From Parcubacteria group bacterium (GTDB lineage Bacteria > Patescibacteriota > Minisyncoccia > Moranbacterales > UBA2206), in NCBI GenBank assembly GCA_041661275.1, contig JBAZUU010000001.1, positions 35,493 through 99,492 of the forward strand: a stretch of 64,000 bases of DNA, in the 5' to 3' direction. This document shows, piece by piece, positions 5,530 through 22,974 of the stretch (within the stretch, counting starts at the first letter, position 1; every line of letters starts with the position of its first letter). A program made the translations under genes and the position numbers. The notes beneath the pieces are model-generated. The model searched no databases, was not told the DNA's origin, and was given only the letters and a program-made list of their open reading frames with translations.

Positions 5530-6285
5530 TTATGACATCTCCTTAATAATCTGTCGCATCATTAGGTCTGCGGGTAAAAATTCTCCCTCCAGAGGGACAA
5601 AAAAATCTCCTTCCACTCTGGTTTTATCGGCAGAAACAGACACTCCAGCCGCGTCAATCATTTCCTTGTCATTAAGATTATCTCCGATCGCTAAGACATT
5701 TTCTTTTTTTAAATTGAGATAATTTTGCAGAGCAGTTAGACCGACAGCTTTGTTTTGAATGTCCCTGACTCCTACATCATACGCCTCTCCATTCCAAAGA
5801 CAGTACAGTTTGTCATACTTGGCCACAACTTCTTCAATTTTTTCTACCCTATCATCACAGTGAATCGTCATAATAAATTCCTTGGGTTCGAATCCTTTGA
5901 CATTCTTTTCTTTTTCAATACCTCTTAATTCTAAAAACAAATCAGAAAGATATTCAAAACTATTGATATGCTGGACTATTTTCCCTTCAATCCAAGTCGC
6001 ACTACCATTTTCATAAGTTATACTGGCAAATGGTAATATCCCTCTAAACACTTCTTGCAGCATATACAACCCCCTCCCAGAATTTATGTTTATATAAAAA
6101 CCGAGTTCTTTTAATTTTTTTATCTGTTCGATTTGCTTCGGATCTATATGCTTAGTTTGCAAGGTCGTAATATCATTTTCTTGCTTTATTTTTGTCCCTC
6201 TTGGCACAAGCACACCATCAACATCAAAAACGATCATTTTTATATCCTTCAAAACTTCTTTGGTTAATTCGTTTATCGGTTTCAT
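5530..6285 (-). CDS. HAD-superfamily hydrolase (Cof/IIB-like sugar phosphatase)
   Basis: N-terminal IVFDVDGVLV is the DxDG motif. About 250 aa. Adjacent to the phosphohexomutase. Confidence 0.65.
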   Translation of the reverse strand: MKPINELTKEVLKDIKMIVFDVDGVLVPRGTKIKQENDITTLQTKHIDPKQIEQIKKLKELGFYININSGRGLYMLQEVFRGILPFASITYENGSATWIEGKIVQHINSFEYLSDLFLELRGIEKEKNVKGFEPKEFIMTIHCDDRVEKIEEVVAKYDKLYCLWNGEAYDVGVRDIQNKAVGLTALQNYLNLKKENVLAIGDNLNDKEMIDAAGVSVSADKTRVEGDFFVPLEGEFLPADLMMRQIIKEMS

Positions 6286-15058: not shown

Positions 15059-15922
15059 CTATCTTTGCAATTTCTTTTTCTCCTGACTTTTCAGAAAATT
15101 TCCGCTAGTAATGACTTTTCTCCCGGTTTTTTGTTCCAAATCGATTCTTGCTTTTTTGGCAATTCTGCCACCTCTTTTGCCAGCAACTTTGTTTTCATCC
15201 ATACCTCTCGCTTCTGTTGTTTCGGCAATTTGTCTGGTAGAAAATTCGGCTAAGGCTGTAAAAATCAATTCCGCTTCACTCATATGATCACGCAGGTTTT
15301 GTGTTTTCAACCCTTTTAGGTTTTTATGCTCTTTTACCGTTAAGTCCGACCACTCTTGATGAATAATATTAGTAAGAATGGCAAATTCTTCTTTTTCTTT
15401 GATATCATTGGCGCTCCAATAGTCCGTCAGCTTGTTTCTTGTTTCTTGCCCCATCATTCTTCGCTGTATCCATTGTTGATTGCGCCCATGTTTTTTCCAA
15501 TTTTCCCGGGCGCGATTGAGCGACTTTTCCGGATCAGCTAATTCTTGAATTCTTTCATATCCAACTTTAGCTAACCACAATTTGATTGGCTCAGCCTTTT
15601 TTGACGGAACTGATTGAATAAGACGGAGGATGGTTTCCGGATTAGCCGCATCCGTAAGATACTTTTTACCATCAGCGGCTTCCAATTTCAGTTGGTTACA
15701 TTCCGTAACCGACTGATTTCCTTCCGTTTTCAAGCGATTTTTCAGCACTTTCCAATAATTTCTAGCTAATTGAAAATCCTTTTGATCAATCAGTACAGCA
15801 ATGATGTCGATTACAGAAAAATACCATACCTCCTCTTTTTCATTATAAAGACGTCGAATTTCAAAATTTTCAAAAATAGCTATTTCGTGGTTTATGTTTT
15901 TTTCCTTTGTTTTCTTTTTCAT
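15059..15922 (-). CDS. Bro-N / DNA-damage-inducible protein D (DinD)-like protein
   Basis: N-terminal Bro-N-like region (FENFEIRRLYNEKEEVWYFSVIDI). Overall resembles DinD/antirepressor family proteins. Confidence 0.6.
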   Translation of the reverse strand: MKKKTKEKNINHEIAIFENFEIRRLYNEKEEVWYFSVIDIIAVLIDQKDFQLARNYWKVLKNRLKTEGNQSVTECNQLKLEAADGKKYLTDAANPETILRLIQSVPSKKAEPIKLWLAKVGYERIQELADPEKSLNRARENWKKHGRNQQWIQRRMMGQETRNKLTDYWSANDIKEKEEFAILTNIIHQEWSDLTVKEHKNLKGLKTQNLRDHMSEAELIFTALAEFSTRQIAETTEARGMDENKVAGKRGGRIAKKARIDLEQKTGRKVITSGNFLKSQEKKKLQR

Positions 15923-15923
15923 T

Positions 15924-16922
15924 TTATTTTTTCATCCCTTTCTTTAACAACTTTTTTACTTCCCGATCAAAATCAGAGATATAATTTTTGTCTTGGTTCA
16001 CGCGATATTTTTCATATTCTTCCAGTGCCTTCTTTTCAGCCTGTTTCGCACTTACCTTGCCGGATGAATGCAATAAATCCTTTTCCGAAATGGTCAAAAA
16101 TTCATCCAGTTTTCTGATCCAATCCTGCATTTTCATCAAACGGCCACTACTGGCTTGCAACTCTGCGAAATCGATATAGAGCGAAACAATGAGATTCAGC
16201 TGATTTATTTCCCGTTCAGTTAGATAGTTTTTTGCGACAACAATGTCATCGGTCGTAATATAATCACTTCTGAAACTCGTGAGTCCCATCAGGGGTTTCT
16301 TACTATCGGCACGCCGGGCGACGATTTCAGCCGCCGTATGTCCATGCACCGCGTAATGCATCTTGTTCTGCACCGTAGCAAAGAATTTTTGTGTCAACTC
16401 GGCATCAATTTTATAGTCGATGCTTGTCGCATAAATATCAGTAACTTTCTGATAAAACCTTCGCTCACTACTCCTGATGTCGCGCACTCGTTGCAATAGT
16501 TCTTGGAAATAGCGTGCTCGACCACCAACTTGTTTGAGTCGTTCGTCGTCCATTGTAAAACCCTTAATCAGATACTCTCTCAGCCTTTCTGTCGCCCATT
16601 TGCGAAATTGCATCCCCCTATCCGATCGTACACAATAGCCAACAGCCAGAATTACATCTAAATCGTAGTGTTTTGCGTTATAACTTTTGCCATCCGCGGC
16701 AGTTATTCGGAAATTCCTAATAACTGAATTTTCGTCCAATTCACCATCTCCAAATATATTTTTCAAATGTTCGTTGACCGTGGGAACGCTCACATCAAAA
16801 AGCTCAGCAATCAGTTTTTGCGTCAACCAAACATTTTCTCCTTCAATTCTAACATGAATTTTTTGCTCATCGCCAAGAGCTTGATAGATGGCAATTTGCG
16901 GTTTTTTATTCTCCTTTTTCAT
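15924..16922 (-). CDS. RhuM-family protein (virulence/anti-defense associated, HTH)
   Basis: VWLTQKLIAELFDVSVPTVNEHLKNIF...VGYCVRSDRGMQFRKWATERLREYLIKGFTMDDERLK matches RhuM family signature blocks. Confidence 0.75.
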   Translation of the reverse strand: MKKENKKPQIAIYQALGDEQKIHVRIEGENVWLTQKLIAELFDVSVPTVNEHLKNIFGDGELDENSVIRNFRITAADGKSYNAKHYDLDVILAVGYCVRSDRGMQFRKWATERLREYLIKGFTMDDERLKQVGGRARYFQELLQRVRDIRSSERRFYQKVTDIYATSIDYKIDAELTQKFFATVQNKMHYAVHGHTAAEIVARRADSKKPLMGLTSFRSDYITTDDIVVAKNYLTEREINQLNLIVSLYIDFAELQASSGRLMKMQDWIRKLDEFLTISEKDLLHSSGKVSAKQAEKKALEEYEKYRVNQDKNYISDFDREVKKLLKKGMKK

Positions 16923-16939
16923 ATTATTCTGCTAACGGT

Positions 16940-18037
16940 TTATAGTGATATAATATCACTATAACCCTCCCTGTCCAGCTCACTGCTGTGGATAACTTTT
17001 ATCTTCCTCGTAATTCCATGCCCGTTGCAGTGTTTCAAAATCCCCGAATACGACTGCAAGCTCTGGCCAAACGATTCTCTGGAAACTAATTTTTCTCGAA
17101 ACATCTTATGTTTCAGTGATAACTTATGGAATATCCGCCTCTTTGTTTTTGTCCTCAAAACTCTATGGTGCGGTAAAACTATATATCCCAGAAAATCAAT
17201 TCCTTGCCTTAGTTTTCTGATAATAATTTTATCAGGATGCAGTTTTAATTTTAATTCCTGTTCGAGAAACTTTCCTATTTCTGGAATTAATTTTTCTAAA
17301 TATTTTTTGTCTTCCAACAAAATAATGAAGTCATCGCAATACCGCAGATAGTATTTTTCTTTTAGCTTATGTTTAATAAACTGATCGAGTTCATTGAGAT
17401 AAATATTGGCAAATATCTGGCTGGTCACGTTGCCCAGCGGCAATCCTGAATCGAAACTTTTGATAATTGTTTCAATAAGCCAAATAGCATTTTTATCGTC
17501 AATCTTCTTTTGAATAAGTTCCAATAATATTTCCTGGTCAATCGAATCAAAAAACCTTTTGATATCGCATTTGAGCGCGTAAATATTTCTATTATTATTT
17601 CGACTGGCTTTCCGACAAAATTGCTCTAATCTTAGAACCGCCCGGTGCGTTCCTTTTTCTACTCGGCAGGAATATGAATCAAAAATGAAAATTTTGTCGA
17701 AAATGGGGTATAATATTCTGAAAATGGCGTGGTGCAGAACGCGATCTCGCACGCAAGCTTTATGAATTCGCCGCAATTTTGGATCGTGCACGTTAAATGC
17801 GGTATAATGGGAATGTTGGTAGGTTTTGTTTTTTAGCTCGCAGTGGAGTTGAAACAAGTTATCTTCCAGACTAAATTCAAGTTCCTGAACGTCTGGCTTA
17901 TTTTTTTTGCCATTTCGAAATTCCTGCCAGGCTAAAAACAAATTTTCCAAGCTAATAATTTTTTCAAATATATTATGACAAATTTCGTCCCCACTAAAGC
18001 CCCCCCCCAAGGAGTTTCCGGTATTAATGTTGTTCAT
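16940..18037 (-). CDS. diversity-generating retroelement (DGR) reverse transcriptase
   Basis: RT domain with the YCDD active site. Motif 4 reads LGNVTSQ, the DGR-specific [I/L/V]GxxxSQ form, in place of QGxxSP. Located 330 bp from a TR/VR pair. Confidence 0.85.
   Translation of the reverse strand: MNNINTGNSLGGGFSGDEICHNIFEKIISLENLFLAWQEFRNGKKNKPDVQELEFSLEDNLFQLHCELKNKTYQHSHYTAFNVHDPKLRRIHKACVRDRVLHHAIFRILYPIFDKIFIFDSYSCRVEKGTHRAVLRLEQFCRKASRNNNRNIYALKCDIKRFFDSIDQEILLELIQKKIDDKNAIWLIETIIKSFDSGLPLGNVTSQIFANIYLNELDQFIKHKLKEKYYLRYCDDFIILLEDKKYLEKLIPEIGKFLEQELKLKLHPDKIIIRKLRQGIDFLGYIVLPHHRVLRTKTKRRIFHKLSLKHKMFREKLVSRESFGQSLQSYSGILKHCNGHGITRKIKVIHSSELDREGYSDIISL
16941..16998 (-). promoter_or_regulatory. 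promoter/operator element A: 23-bp palindrome tatagtgatataatatcactata (extended -10 TGaTATAAT / TGaTATTAT), upstream TGGACA -35, and 13-mer AAGTTATCCACAG
   Basis: Palindrome at 16941-16963. On the minus strand it reads TGGACA-16-TGaTATTAT ahead of the rhuM start 16922. ctgtggataactt at 16986-16998 is the reverse complement of AAGTTATCCACAG. Confidence 0.55.
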
Positions 18038-18373
18038 AAAAATAGCAAGCCTAAATTATTTATTGACCTTGAAAAATTATACGGCGACTGCTATGATCGC
18101 GTAAAAAATTTTCCCAAGCTGGATAAAAATCTCCTTGGAAAAGAAATTTTACAATTTTTGAACGATACGCACAAAGCCTCTTTGATCTCAATCTACGCTC
18201 CTTCTTATCTTCCTTTAGCCAGCGCTAATTTCGATCTGTTCAAAAAATCATTGCGGATTGCCGTGGACAAAAAATTCATTTCCTGCGGCTGGTATTCGGC
18301 TCATTTTGAAATTATCGTTTCCATTGGAAGAGATATCGGAAAATGGCTAAAAACAAAACGCCCGAAGTGCTAG
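17975..18373 (+). CDS. 132-aa ORF antisense to the RT-TR spacer; possible accessory (Avd-like?) protein or spurious
   Basis: An unusually long open frame for an AT-rich genome. Has a weak DCYD match to the Bordetella Avd N-terminus. It overlaps the RT 5' end and sits on the opposite strand. Confidence 0.2.
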   Translation: MTNFVPTKAPPQGVSGINVVHKNSKPKLFIDLEKLYGDCYDRVKNFPKLDKNLLGKEILQFLNDTHKASLISIYAPSYLPLASANFDLFKKSLRIAVDKKFISCGWYSAHFEIIVSIGRDIGKWLKTKRPKC

Positions 18374-18470
18374 GGCGAGGCGCAACCGGTTGACGCTGTT
18401 GGAGTTGTCGGCATCGTTCGAGTTGAGGTTGAACTCGCTGTCGTACGAGTCGGCAATGCCACACGAGACA
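18373..18470 (-). repeat. DGR template repeat (TR)
   Basis: 98 bp aligning with 18825-18922 at offset 452. Carries A (coding strand) at all 14 mismatch positions. The coding-strand 3' 32 bp are invariant (IMH-like). Confidence 0.8.
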
Positions 18471-18693
18471 AAATAGCGCTGTTCCGTCCTTTTTTCAAAA
18501 AGAAAAAATTTATTTCTTTTTATATCCTGTTTTTCAGGACTCCGTTTGGACGCTAACATAAATTCATTTTTCTCCGTCCCTGGAACCGCGCTGAACTTCG
18601 GGTTTTTGTATGAGGAGGATTCCGCGTACGGAAATCCTGCTGGACTCAAGGTTATTCTATCATCATTTTTCTGAAATTGAAATACTTATTGCG

Positions 18694-18728
18694 ATAAAAA
18701 AACCCCCGCAATGTTTCCATTGCGGGGT
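18694..18728 (-). terminator. rho-independent terminator downstream of DGR target gene
   Basis: ccccgcaatg-tttc-cattgcgggg is a perfect 10-bp stem. It is followed by a T-run on the minus strand (A-run 18694-18702 on plus). Confidence 0.5.
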
Positions 18729-18819
18729 TGAAATCAATCCGGAATCCAGAATCCATTTTCCGCTTCGCGGAAAAATCCTTTCCATCCCGAAGCGGGACGG
18801 AAAATCTGAACCCGAAATT

Positions 18820-19845
18820 CTATAGGGCGAGGCGCAACCGGTTGACGCTGTTGGAGCTGCCGGCACCGCACGAGCCGAGGCCGAACCCGCCGCCGCACGA
18901 GCCGGCAATGCCACACGAGACACCGGGATTCGTACCTTTGTCGCGATGGTCAACGACATTTCTCAGCCAATCCCACGTTTTGGGAGCCAGATATGTTTTG
19001 TTCTTCGCGTAACGCTGGCATGCCAGAATCATTTCTTCTTCCGCTGAAACTACTCTTACTTTCCGCTCGATCGCCGAAATGTATGAGCAATCGCGAAGTT
19101 CGACGATCCGGCCATCCTTGTTGACGATGGTCTGATTGGTGGAGATGTCCTGGGCGCTGTTGGTAAAAATGAGATCCACCATACCAGGAATGACCAAAAG
19201 TGGTCGCTTCCCGATAATCAGCCGAATTATTTCCGCCACCCACGCATTTTTGAAGTCGTCACTATTAAATTCCTCCGGCTCGACAGATATACCTCTTTCA
19301 AGAAGTTCTGCGAGCGTGAGTTTCGTCCACCGGTCAGTGCCGTTCTCCGCCCAGACCCTGAAGCCTTCTTTTTTGAGCGGTTTCATAATCCGCTCGTAGA
19401 AAAACCGGGCGCCAGTCATCTGCGCTTCCGTATCGGACAAGATTAGCGGCGTAGCTTTGACTTCGGCGTAGCTGAGACAGCCCGCTTCTAGCCCGGCTTT
19501 GATGGCCGGCATCCTGTTCGGGTCAATGGAGATTTTCTTGAAATCGATACGGAAATCATCGCCGTAAAACTGGCGATAAAAAACTTCCTGCTCGGCGATC
19601 TGGCCCATCAATCCGCCTGACAGTTTCGACTCCAGCTTATTCTTCTTGAGCCAGAGCAAAAACTTTTTGAGGTTGAGGTTTTTTCTGACAGGGATGATGC
19701 CGGAATTTCTTTCTCGTTCTTCTTTTTTCAAATTGAGAAACCATTCCAGCTCCTCCAAAGACAACTCTCCTTTACGAAGCTTGGAGAGCAGGTCGATTTG
19801 CAGACCAGCCAATCTGGCCGTTTCTGCTCCGATGATCACACTCAT
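18820..19845 (-). CDS. DGR target (variable) protein, 341 aa, VR-encoded C-terminus GSCGGGFGLGSCGAGSS
   Basis: In-frame through the VR. The TR reading in the same frame has AAC/GAC codons where the VR has GGC/TGC/AGC. No obvious signal peptide. Confidence 0.7.
   Translation of the reverse strand: MSVIIGAETARLAGLQIDLLSKLRKGELSLEELEWFLNLKKEERERNSGIIPVRKNLNLKKFLLWLKKNKLESKLSGGLMGQIAEQEVFYRQFYGDDFRIDFKKISIDPNRMPAIKAGLEAGCLSYAEVKATPLILSDTEAQMTGARFFYERIMKPLKKEGFRVWAENGTDRWTKLTLAELLERGISVEPEEFNSDDFKNAWVAEIIRLIIGKRPLLVIPGMVDLIFTNSAQDISTNQTIVNKDGRIVELRDCSYISAIERKVRVVSAEEEMILACQRYAKNKTYLAPKTWDWLRNVVDHRDKGTNPGVSCGIAGSCGGGFGLGSCGAGSSNSVNRLRLAL
18825..18922 (-). repeat. DGR variable repeat (VR) at 3' end of target gene
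   Basis: Differs from TR at 14 sites, all at TR coding-strand adenines (13 A>G, 1 A>T). Encodes the Gly/Cys-rich C-terminus. Confidence 0.8.
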
Positions 19846-20129
19846 CGTTTTCTCCCTTCCTATAACTATAAATTTAAAAAGGTACTTCTTTTTCTCTCAA
19901 TTACCGGCCAATCCGGCAATTCAAGAAAGCATAGCACAAAAGCCGCCCGGAGTCAAACCTGGAGTCAAATTTGGGGCGGTAAAATGGCGTTTTTTGGCTT
20001 GAATAAGCAATAAAATTAGCTATTGCAATAAAATTGGTTCTATGCTAGTATTAATTTACAGAAAGTTCCCGGCCCAGGGTCTACAAGCACCCTACAATGG
20101 CGGGGAATTTTTTTGTGTTTATTTTTTAC

Positions 20130-20546
20130 TTATGACGGAGGAAAGCAAGACATAAAAAATTTGCGTTTGGTTTTAGAATCTTCTTTTATTTGCACAAAAA
20201 AGAGCAATCCTTCTTCGGTTAGCCCTGCAAATCTATAGAAAGTTTCTTTGGGTTTATTGGGATTATTTTTTATAAACGGTTTATTTCTTGAATTTTTAAC
20301 GAGTTCTACCGACGCGCAAAAATACTTAAGCCTCTCTAATCTGTCTTTGTACGGCTTTTGCCGCAAATGATCCCAAAAGTAGTCAAAAAATATTTTTTCT
20401 TTTTTGAAATAAGCACTACGGACATATGGCCTTCTTTTACTTTTTCTTTTTACTTCTGAAAATATATTTAAAGCGTTTCTATATACTTCCGTACGGCTGG
20501 TTCCAGGAACCTTTCTTGATTTTGTCTGATATGGAATAACCTCCAT
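20130..20546 (-). CDS. hypothetical basic protein (about 138 aa) downstream of the DGR target
   Basis: Start chosen at the internal ATG 20546 (MEVIPYQ...), directly behind promoter element B. Lys/Arg-rich. Confidence 0.45.
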   Translation of the reverse strand: MEVIPYQTKSRKVPGTSRTEVYRNALNIFSEVKRKSKRRPYVRSAYFKKEKIFFDYFWDHLRQKPYKDRLERLKYFCASVELVKNSRNKPFIKNNPNKPKETFYRFAGLTEEGLLFFVQIKEDSKTKRKFFMSCFPPS

Positions 20547-20566
20547 TGAATTATTTTTGTTTTTAT

Positions 20567-20625
20567 TATAGTGATATAATATCACTATAAATAATCCTTG
20601 TCCACCCCTACTCCACAATTATCAT
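20567..20625 (-). promoter_or_regulatory. promoter/operator element B: palindrome identical to A (23/23), with TGGACA-17-TGaTATTAT on the minus strand
   Basis: tatagtgatataatatcactata at 20567-20589. TGGACA lies 17 nt upstream on the minus strand. A degenerate box follows (ctccacaattatc). Confidence 0.55.
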
Positions 20626-21807
20626 CGCCTTCCGGCCTTCGGTGATCTTGTCGCGATTTCCCGGGAAATCGTGGATGGCGTTATAAAGAGTGTTGATGTT
20701 ATAGCGATAGCCGGCTCCTTTCCTGGTGCCGGAATCATTGGTGATTATCGTATCACCGTCATAACCGATCAAGACCACGGCATGGTACGGCGGACCGGGA
20801 TATTTGAAATTAGGATTGCCCAGCATCTGCCCTGCCGCCGGAATGATGATCGGTTTTCCCCGCGCCAGATATTTTTTCAAATCTTCTTTTTTGAAATCAT
20901 AAACGACTTTCATATTATTTATTCCATAAAAATCACGTGCCAGAGTCACGATTTCCTGAGCGCTGCTATCGATATAATTGTCATATTTTGTTATCTCGAA
21001 CTTTATCATTTTTTGGATTTCATTTTCAGCCGTGTTTGGATCCAGCGGCTTTCCATCCAAAAAATATTTCACCATAATAAGAGCTGTTTCCTCACAAGCT
21101 TCTTCATGAAATTGATCCCATTGGGCGAATGGTGCTTGCGGAGTAAAAGGAACCTTAATCAGCACTCTTTCGGGAATAGGCGCATTGGTATTGGCATTAA
21201 TATTGGCATTATTATCATTACTGCTTTGACTACCGGTAACACCAACATTTTTATTTTCATTATTGCTGGTAACAATATTATTCTGATTTTGAGAAGAATC
21301 AACCGGACTGGAAAAAACAACCGTATTTTTGGCAATATTATTTCCTTCTTCGATCATCTGGAAAGTAAGACCGGAAATAGCCAGAGCGATGATTGCGACA
21401 ATAAAAATCGTATGCTTTTTCAACTGTCCTGTTATTTTCGTCACAATTATCTGCGTAGCCAGAAGCGCGCTCAAAAAATCAAAAACTACATCAATGAAAC
21501 GTCCGGATCGGCCGGGAATAAAAGTTTGGTGAAACTCATCGCTAGTGGCATAAAAGAGTACTGCTGCTAGAGTCAAAACAAGCGCGTCACGCATAACAAG
21601 ATTCCAGGAATAATAGAAAATACGCCAAACGAGCCAAAGAAGAATGGCATATTCCGCCAGGTGTCCCGCTTTTCGCGCCACTACTTCCAGTGTCACGTTA
21701 GACGATCCCATATTAAGATCAGGAATGGAAGAAAGATAAAAGATCAAAACCATCCAAGTAAAAGCCGGGAGATAATATTTGAAAAAGTTTATAATTTTTG
21801 AATTCAT
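20608..21807 (-). CDS. VanZ-like membrane domain fused to C39-like papain-fold peptidase domain protein
   Basis: N-terminal VanZ motifs (ARKAGHLAEYAILLWLVWR, DEFHQTFIPGRSGRFIDVVFD). The C-terminal half has a C39-like fold (..HAVVLIGYDGDTIITNDSG). Confidence 0.55.
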   Translation of the reverse strand: MNSKIINFFKYYLPAFTWMVLIFYLSSIPDLNMGSSNVTLEVVARKAGHLAEYAILLWLVWRIFYYSWNLVMRDALVLTLAAVLFYATSDEFHQTFIPGRSGRFIDVVFDFLSALLATQIIVTKITGQLKKHTIFIVAIIALAISGLTFQMIEEGNNIAKNTVVFSSPVDSSQNQNNIVTSNNENKNVGVTGSQSSNDNNANINANTNAPIPERVLIKVPFTPQAPFAQWDQFHEEACEETALIMVKYFLDGKPLDPNTAENEIQKMIKFEITKYDNYIDSSAQEIVTLARDFYGINNMKVVYDFKKEDLKKYLARGKPIIIPAAGQMLGNPNFKYPGPPYHAVVLIGYDGDTIITNDSGTRKGAGYRYNINTLYNAIHDFPGNRDKITEGRKAMIIVE

Positions 21808-21810
21808 CGG

Positions 21811-22974
21811 TTAATATATAATGACTGGCGTACCAACATCTGTCCATTCAAAGGCTTGCTTGGCCGGGCCGACTCCCAGTCGGATACAGCCGTGTGACAC
21901 CGGGATACCCAAATGATTAGCGCCCTCTTTATATCCCCCCGGCCATTCCGGAAGTTCATGGATACCGAAACTGCCGTCGCTAGCCACCGCCATCCAATAC
22001 GGCATGTAGAGTCCGTATCTTTTCGACCACACTCTTGGCGCTTTGTTATGAATAGTAAATTCGCCCTTTGTCGTTTCCATCCCTCTTTTGCCGGAAGAGA
22101 TCATGCTGGACATGACTATTTTTCCATTTTCAAAAAGAGAAAGAACCTGGGCTTCCAGATTGACGTCGATATATTTTCCTTCTTCGATCTTGGCCTTGGT
22201 GAAACGTTTGGCCTGCTCAAGTCTCGCCGTGAAATCCTTTTCCCATGATAGGGGTTCCGGCGGCAAAGTAGAAAAAGAACTTCGGAAAATTTCCCGATAA
22301 TTATCGTCTGTGTCTTTGGAAAATTTAGCATAGATGACCAATTTGTATTCCTGCCCTTCCTTTATTTTTTCCTGAGGAAGAATTTTGAACTGCGTCTTAT
22401 CTTCGTTGTTTTTGTAGGACATCGGGCTATCGGGAGTCAGGGAAAATTTCAGAAAAAATCCTTCAGTCGACTGATCGAAATTGACAACTATAGGATCTTC
22501 GATATCTAACGCAACGTCTTTGGCGCTGTCCTCCGGAATTATTTTTGTAACCCGAGGAAACTTGATAGTGGAAAAAGTTATATCCTGCGCGTCAATTCCC
22601 GCCAGCATGGCATTTTTTCCATCTGGAAGCGACAGTGTATATTGGGTTTCTGGCCGCCAAAAGTTCTTTGGCATGATGATCAGTTTCTTTCCGGAATTTT
22701 CCCAGGTGTATTCCATTTCGGTTTCCGGCAGCACTTTTATTCCAGTGCTATAATTTTGCGTCATGACCGGTTGGGAAAAATTGATAACGATGGGATCTAA
22801 CGGCTTCACATTTTCCCTATTTTCCATCGCGATTTCCGTTTTGAAAACCTGCGGGTAAGCTTCGATACTGTAGGCTGATCCGAATACTCCGGCAGCCATT
22901 ATAGACAGCACAAAAACAAAAACTTTCCAGCTGGTTATGTGATGGGTGCCGACATGTTTTTTTATCCTGTCCAT
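21811..22974 (-). CDS. L,D-transpeptidase (YkuD domain) with N-terminal Ig-like repeats
   Basis: C-terminal SHGCIRLG catalytic motif. N-terminal signal/TM. Confidence 0.8.
   Translation of the reverse strand: MDRIKKHVGTHHITSWKVFVFVLSIMAAGVFGSAYSIEAYPQVFKTEIAMENRENVKPLDPIVINFSQPVMTQNYSTGIKVLPETEMEYTWENSGKKLIIMPKNFWRPETQYTLSLPDGKNAMLAGIDAQDITFSTIKFPRVTKIIPEDSAKDVALDIEDPIVVNFDQSTEGFFLKFSLTPDSPMSYKNNEDKTQFKILPQEKIKEGQEYKLVIYAKFSKDTDDNYREIFRSSFSTLPPEPLSWEKDFTARLEQAKRFTKAKIEEGKYIDVNLEAQVLSLFENGKIVMSSMISSGKRGMETTKGEFTIHNKAPRVWSKRYGLYMPYWMAVASDGSFGIHELPEWPGGYKEGANHLGIPVSHGCIRLGVGPAKQAFEWTDVGTPVIIY

Follow-up and report, generated by a model that had tools for sequence, protein, structure and literature searches.

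A complete DGR of known CPR type in a Parcubacteria-group genome, with context-biased A-to-G substitution and a divergent target that is probably soluble and CLec-like

The window, by which we mean the whole 64-kb stretch of DNA that was analysed, contains a DGR whose parts are listed in Table 1. Along the minus strand the order is target gene, hairpins and terminator, TR and RT gene, with the TR 350 nt downstream of the target ORF, while an Avd-like gene occupies the opposite strand in the TR-RT interval. The 5′ end of this gene overlaps the 5′ end of the RT gene by 63 nt and, since the gene is inverted and abuts the TR, the 3′ spacer of the TR RNA would be antisense to avd. Its product was matched by Pfam bAvd (E 1.9e-4, 22 bits) and NCBIfam DivGenRetAVD (E 4.5e-7, 30 bits), which lie under the curated cut-offs of 40 and 80, respectively. 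Inverted Avd-like genes are also found at the related loci L005 (6298-6693), L016 (4450-4839), L018 (4445-4702) and L024 (4545-4772), and the layout is thus conserved in the family. By analogy with the Bordetella DGR, the first hairpin beyond the VR is a candidate target-recognition hairpin. A search of Rfam with positions 16500-20500 returned only two sub-threshold chance matches, at the terminator.

Table 1. Features of the DGR and their positions in the window.
Feature	Position	Strand	Remarks
DGR reverse transcriptase (RT), 365 aa	16940..18037	-	Motifs PKLRRI, LGNVTSQ and YCDD; Pfam RVT_1 7.5e-23
Avd-like accessory gene, 132 aa	17975..18373	+	Inverted relative to the RT; the final 3 nt of the TR repeat serve as its stop codon
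TR	18371..18470	-	22 adenines, AAC/GAC-rich; between target and RT, as in relatives
Promoter-like site, TTGAAA-17-TATTTT	18470..18498	-	Abuts the 5′ edge of the TR; weak (consensus scan only, 9/12)
Intrinsic terminator-like hairpin and T-run	18697..18727	-	Predicted to end the target transcript before the TR
Second hairpin, 8-bp stem, G+C-rich	18756..18774	-	RNA fold
G+C-rich hairpin, 11-bp stem	18779..18803	-	About 20 nt past VR and stop codon; RNA fold, z = -4.5 for the whole region
DGR target gene, 341 aa	18820..19845	-	Helical N-terminal module (about residues 1-55), conserved core, C-terminal VR
VR	18823..18922	-	Final 33 codons of the target gene; matches the TR over 100 nt except at 14 positions
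Unmutated 3′ part of VR	18823..18856	-	Contains G+C-rich CGGTTGCGCCTCGCCCTA, a likely IMH
Mutated patch within VR	18857..18902	-	14/15 templated A's changed, 13 to G and 1 to T

The region directly 3′ of the RT gene (15059-16922, minus strand) encodes a RhuM-family protein (Pfam E 9e-109) and a protein with a Bro-N domain. Genes of these two kinds are typical of mobile elements and prophages, and the DGR may be part of an island. Immediately upstream of the target gene lies a 162-aa ORF (20130-20618, minus strand) that had no match in Pfam or NCBIfam. Further upstream, again on the minus strand, come a gene for a fusion of VanZ and Peptidase_C39_2 (20608-21807) and an ORF (21811-22974) whose product carries the motif HxxxSxGCIRL, which is L,D-transpeptidase-like. 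At three related loci (L016, L019 and L024) the target gene adjoins MreC/MreD/PBP2 or Mur ligase genes, and a cell-envelope neighbourhood of the target is possible.

A repeat search of the window recovered the TR and VR as a 100-nt direct repeat of 86% identity, the only such repeat, and neither a second VR nor a further TR-like copy was found within the 64 kb. When the two copies were compared on the coding (minus) strand, all 14 mismatches fell at TR adenines and none at a non-A position, an outcome with a chance probability of about 0.22^14, or 6e-10, given 22 adenines in 100 nt. Thirteen of the changes are A>G and one, at window position 18870, is A>T, which reproduces the near-exclusive A>G outcome given in the preliminary description of this locus. 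Each of the 14 alters the first or second base of a codon and is non-synonymous, and the VR product thereby gains eight Gly, two new Cys and one Ser. The VR encodes VSCGIAGSCGGGFGLGSCGAGSSNSVNRLRLAL, where the TR would encode VSCGIADSYDSEFNLNSNDADNSNSVNRLRLAL; the Gly/Cys-rich C-terminus ascribed to the target (peptide GSCGGGFGLGSCGAGSS) was likewise confirmed. The pair was also considered as an ordinary duplication whose copies had drifted apart through transitions or deamination, a reading that was rejected since the differences are all at one base of one copy, RT and Avd genes are adjacent, and 12 other loci are alike.

The changed adenines are confined to TR positions 21-66, where 14 of 15 were altered, and none of the seven adenines outside this patch was. 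The per-adenine rate of change within the central patch far exceeds the 30-52% reported for bRT, the Bordetella enzyme. Five of the unchanged adenines correspond to the 3′ 34 nt of the VR (18823-18856), at positions that are mutated in relatives, and their collective escape is improbable by chance (about 0.33^5 = 0.004). The central patch and the untouched 3′ tract may stem from selection or from a crossover of the cDNA within the VR. Beyond the stop codon the repeat continues imperfectly (CCCTATAGAATTTCGGG at the VR, CCCTAGCACTTCGGG at the TR), and an imperfect 3′ flank repeat (...CTTCGGG) is also present in relatives. From these sequences, the 3′ segment of the VR and the flank repeat can be assigned as putative IMH/IMH*.

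The best solved relative of the RT among PDB sequences is the Bordetella DGR RT (8ub7, E 1.2e-45), with which it aligns at the [I/V/L]GxxxSQ motif; its LGNVTSQ is this DGR-type form, instead of QGxxxSP. LGNVTSQ, YCDD and PKLR[RK]I are common to all RTs of the family, and all have V and C at the positions aligned to bRT L184 and M214. The element as a whole resembles the DGR of Bordetella phage BPP-1 (mtd/avd/TR/brt) in its adenine-specific TR-to-VR transfer, in a VR that closes the target gene on its 3′ side, in an RT that aligns to bRT (8ub7) with R74 and I76 conserved, and in having an Avd-like gene, a constant 3′ segment rich in G+C and, beyond the VR, a hairpin. It is unlike BPP-1, a phage tail-fibre system, in being chromosomal in a CPR bacterium, in the inversion of avd, which here abuts the 3′ end of the TR, in the V and C of its RT at bRT L184/M214, and in a target that is not Mtd-like outside the predicted CLec core.

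A hypothetical protein encoded in a Parcubacteria-group MAG has the same sequence as the target (100% identity). A word-indexed search yielded 27 homologues, all from CPR/Patescibacteria or metagenome bins, and a profile search found 35 representatives among 1.84 billion proteins. In the family alignment the N-terminal part is variable and helical and the core is well conserved, with the motifs RLPAIKAGLEAG, WAExGTDRWT, NTWEWRRD and a C-terminal RLRLAL. The C-terminus follows the pattern VSxAxAxSxxxEFxLxSxxAxxSxxxxRLRLAL, in which the x positions are filled in different members by H, V, D, S, Y, L, G, C, F, N, R and W, the full AAC repertoire. The target had no match in Pfam or NCBIfam, and none of 26 members matched FGE-sulfatase (PF03781), DUF1566 or another lectin-type family at Pfam E <= 10. 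Searches of PDB sequences, with the target by phmmer and with the family profile, gave no true match; scFv sequences that appeared there were discarded as Gly/Ser-linker noise. The protein is therefore, as had been described, one that sequence profiles (Pfam, NCBIfam and PDB sequences) do not recognise.

Two further groups of proteins share parts of the target. P0028, a 216-aa metagenome protein, has the N-terminal module only, aligning with about residues 1-40 at 80% identity (shared pattern IGAETAKLAGLQIDLL.KLR.G.LSL..LE.FLNLKKE) and continuing into an unrelated C-terminal part; from this comparison the N-terminal module seems exchangeable. P0053 (963 aa) and P0055 (591 aa) are Ig-repeat proteins (MG2, Big_7, Big_3_2 and others) that match positions 48-115 of the target profile six to nine times each, with E-values of 3e-20 and 2e-13. 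This match is either a shared sub-domain or compositional.

A crude hydropathy scan of 26 members, the window target among them, revealed neither a hydrophobic segment at the N-terminus (maximum 12-residue Kyte-Doolittle mean 1.5), as a signal peptide would need, nor a convincing TM segment. The ORF of the window target opens at the earliest start codon that follows a stop, so that 341 aa is already the longest product possible and no upstream start can add a signal peptide. The target is probably soluble and cytoplasmic. TvpA of Treponema denticola is a cell-surface lipoprotein, whereas the window target has no export signal; it also has no FGE-sulfatase Pfam match at E <= 10, and its structural similarity to TvpA and other FGE-type CLec proteins (TaqVP, Mtd) is weak.

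AlphaFold2 modelled the full-length target with a pLDDT of 82 and a pTM of 0.77, and residues 96-341 alone with values of 80.5 and 0.82, the VR loop remaining below a pLDDT of 50. The C-terminal part of about 245 residues is best explained, from predicted structure, as a putative and very divergent CLec/FGE-like domain that would present the VR. A Foldseek search of the full model against the PDB returned no match at E < 3. The family can be linked to the CLec superfamily by predicted structure and to the AAA-ATPase targets of CPR bacteria by domain fusion. A new non-CLec scaffold for DGR variation is judged very unlikely. The fusions occur in four relatives (P0032, P0036, P0040 and P0059), in which an AAA_5 domain (E 1e-8 to 1e-13) stands N-terminal to a target-type domain with the VR motif. 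The window target has no ATPase domain, and AAA_5 fused to the target-type domain of its homologues makes it an ATPase-less relative of the CLec-AAA group. The same four fusions argue for a cytoplasmic role. The target is presumably a diversifiable ligand sensor.

Such a target has precedents. Like the clade-2 DGRs of CPR bacteria (Paul et al. 2017; Wu et al. 2017; Roux et al. 2021), the window element has a Parcubacteria MAG as its host, and its target shares the typical condition of those targets, which is to have no TM segment, signal peptide or recognisable domain (Roux et al., PMC8144416); the same authors predict that unrecognised VR domains are new CLec variants (PMC8144416). As summarised in PMC10907252, which refers to Paul et al. 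2017, the most frequent target architecture in CPR is a CLec domain joined to an AAA ATPase, and among the VR classes that Wu et al. describe as unassigned in CPR is one with Midasin/P-loop domains (PMC5758913). The AAA_5-fused relatives match the first architecture and, going by its description, the Midasin/P-loop UVR4 group (PMC5758913); the window member is unlike CLec-AAA CPR targets in having a helical N-terminal module of about 55 aa instead of the ATPase. Dore et al. (2024) predicted cytoplasmic CLec sensors in other bacteria, namely the STAND/MoxR-NTPase-fused 'antigen sensors' of multicellular bacteria (PMC10907252). The window target is like these in being DGR-diversified and predicted to be cytoplasmic, and shares with them, through its relatives, the NTPase fusion. 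It is unlike them in its RT clade, CPR clade 2 rather than their clade 5 (PMC10907252), in having no effector domain, and in that no conflict-system neighbours were identified besides the RhuM and Bro-N genes. The suggestion in the preliminary description that the target is cytoplasmic is therefore probably right, there being no export signal, but not new: a divergent CLec-like target, cytoplasmic and without a signal peptide, is a kind already known for CPR DGRs.

Several relatives are decayed elements. In L005/L015 (5774-5882) a 1-nt deletion in the VR frameshifts the target, and in L002 (about 5900-6003) the target continues into TR-flank-like sequence (...LALALRAFCFFEP). Nine contigs of several samples bear the identical target of L021-L023, in which the RT is a stub of 211 aa and a TR is missing, and in L016 the RT is absent and the TR is A-poor.

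Relatives of the target were retrieved by exact-protein matching and from collections of genomes and metagenomes, and each VR was aligned to its own TR with an A-tolerant gapped aligner. Thirteen non-redundant TR/VR pairs, the window and 12 relatives, were used for the substitution spectrum; L002, L006, L007, L011, L013/14 and L020-23, which are contig ends or decayed elements with no TR within the DNA covered, were left out. In the 13 pairs together 203 TR adenines were substituted: G took the place of 130 (64%), T of 54 (27%) and C of 19 (9%). When sequence context is ignored, the 13/14 of the window has a P of 0.012 relative to the 62% G of the pooled relatives. Context has a strong bearing on the outcome, however: changed adenines without an A neighbour (lone A's) went to G at a rate of 89% (33 G, 4 T, 0 C), and in AA pairs followed by C or T, AA(C/T), the figure was 51% at the first A and 68% at the second. 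The mutated part of the window TR is unusually rich in single-A codons (GAC x4, TAC, AGC, GAG, GAT). Since half of the window changes (7/14) fall at lone A's, context rates estimated without the window, from the 189 substitutions of the relatives only, lead to an expectation of 10.2/14 G, and the probability of 13 or more is 0.06, which is borderline. Three relatives are as G-skewed as the window, L005/L015 with 16/18, L024 with 18/20 and L019 with 12/14. The A>G run of the window is largely what its TR codon composition and the context bias of the family predict, and the view that this outcome is unusual, put forward in the preliminary description, finds no support in a family that is already mostly G, with other loci equally skewed, a context-corrected P that is not significant, and A-to-G dominance already published for the Bordetella RT in vivo (10.1101/2025.08.18.670894).

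In E. coli the Bordetella RT misincorporates chiefly C (18.2% of a total of 30.65%), so that the changes are 'primarily' A-to-G; only AAC/AC contexts show a broader profile (10.1101/2025.08.18.670894). The predominance of A>G in the family and its broadening at AAC are thus like those of BPP-1 in vivo (10.1101/2025.08.18.670894). A>C changes are seldom seen in these pairs (9% in the family and 0 in the window), whereas bRT reaches up to about 45% G-misincorporation at GAC/CAC. In vitro the Bordetella enzyme misincorporates A (22.2%), C (17.8%) and G (11.6%), and the substitutions L184A and M214V move its bias towards C (PMC7826257). V and C at the aligned positions of the family RTs are consistent with a family-wide preference for G; being common to all of these RTs, they do not explain differences in G fraction within the family.

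Such differences are considerable. The G fraction is heterogeneous among the relatives (chi2 40.2, 11 df, p = 3e-5), with values as far apart as 90% in L024, 41% in L004 and 28% in L003, and after context correction L024 and L005 are still high (P 0.002 and 0.008) and L003 and L010 still low (P about 0.001). Despite shared RT motifs, the spectra range from balanced A>N (L003, L010) to near-pure A>G (window, L024, L005, L019). RT identities across loci are 62-77%, the RT of G-high L024 is nearest to those of G-low L003 and L004, and no RT residue or clade was found that splits G-high from G-low loci. This heterogeneity between loci means that one fixed RT preference is not the whole story; its source could be conditions at the time of each event (e.g. 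dNTP pools), selection on the VR, or both.

One alternative account of the window VR builds on this variation, proposing that some homing events are near-pure A>G through a shift in the state of the host, for example where a CPR cell that scavenges nucleotides is short of dTTP compared with dCTP. It draws on the strong differences in G fraction among relatives, with four loci at or above 86% G, on a skew that is unrelated to RT similarity, and on the behaviour of bRT, which misincorporates mostly A in vitro (PMC7826257) and mostly C in E. coli (10.1101/2025.08.18.670894). The authors ascribe this difference to template context, although conditions may have had an effect; the excess of the window after context correction is not significant (P = 0.06); and with a single snapshot per locus, VR selection could also yield differences between loci. 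We regard a host-state shift as the cause here as unlikely. The broader proposition that the family's output spectrum switches between events or hosts, through nucleotide pools or, less likely, through inosine in the TR RNA, is regarded as somewhat more doubtful still.

Selection could also have acted on the window VR itself, by enriching a Gly/Cys-rich variant from a balanced A>N pool, e.g. as a flexible or 'blank' binding surface. The identical protein is alone in its 90%-identity cluster and lies on a 300-kb contig, from which it follows that one VR haplotype dominates, and other G-high relatives are Gly-rich too. Such enrichment would need Gly to be favoured independently at eight surface positions, a result that mutational bias achieves at no cost, and lone-A sites are 89% G across the family regardless of the residue produced. 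Moreover, the G-high relative L005/L015 has the frameshifting VR deletion, so that its VR is not under purifying selection. A selected variant is accordingly held to be very unlikely. The possibility of an assembly artefact was weighed as well, in which the VR would be a per-position consensus of a mixed population and a modest preference for G would have become all-G; hypervariable regions are often mis-assembled, and G is the commonest substitution in the family. The contig, however, is named k141_323660 in the style of MEGAHIT with k = 141 (k127 in the case of L024), and k-mers of this size, judged from contig naming, are longer than the 100-nt VR and must derive from real reads or from contigs assembled earlier, so that the haplotype is most likely real and an artefact highly improbable.

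A>G changes could in principle arise without misincorporation by the RT, if the TR RNA underwent A-to-I editing prior to reverse transcription, as part of a dsRNA formed through convergent read-through from avd. The bRT-Avd complex places C opposite hypoxanthine 96-97% of the time (PMC7826257). In the window avd and the TR are convergent, no terminator separates them, and the changes form a dense patch (14/15 A's). Weighed against this, ordinary misincorporation is required by the A>T change of the window and by the 36% T and C in relatives of the same architecture, and a dsRNA adenosine deaminase is absent from the locus and is not known from bacteria. Editing is therefore considered extremely improbable.

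Taken together, these findings describe a feature that is real and was correctly described, but that is an ordinary DGR of known CPR type. The joint reading that we consider probable is of a complete CPR-lineage DGR with a context-biased A>G spectrum and a soluble, divergent CLec-like target. Judged from its sequence, the element is probably active. In the mechanism we propose, the TR RNA would be reverse-transcribed by the RT, with Avd, misincorporating opposite adenines only, and the cDNA so made would overwrite the VR in the 3′-terminal part of the target gene. The favoured wrong nucleotide would be dCTP, and nearly the only one at adenines that lack an A neighbour; the near-exclusive A>G outcome would come mostly from this context preference, shared by the family, acting on a TR with many lone-A codons, and chance would account for the rest. 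The present VR would be a single genuine haplotype, the product of the most recent homing event or events. Of the two readings offered earlier, a new target scaffold or a snapshot of one variant, the snapshot is the better and the new scaffold the weaker. The target itself would belong with the CLec-AAA ATPase targets that CPR DGRs typically have, as a short form without the AAA part.

The sole lead of possible interest in the spectrum is the residual variation in G fraction between loci. If a switch in output spectrum were true, the G-restricted mode would shrink the repertoire of an AAC codon from 15 residues to Asn, Asp, Ser and Gly. The natural TR/VR pairs of this one family mirror the context rule of the Bordetella RT, with lone A's going to G and AAC more broadly, a rule by which the choice of TR codons (AAC as against GAC, TAC or AGC) sets the real diversity that a DGR can make. 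For the targets, a rare family without a profile in Pfam or NCBIfam can be tied to the CLec superfamily by predicted structure and to the AAA-ATPase targets of CPR bacteria by fusion, which supports the view that the 'domain-less' targets of CPR DGRs are divergent intracellular CLec sensors.
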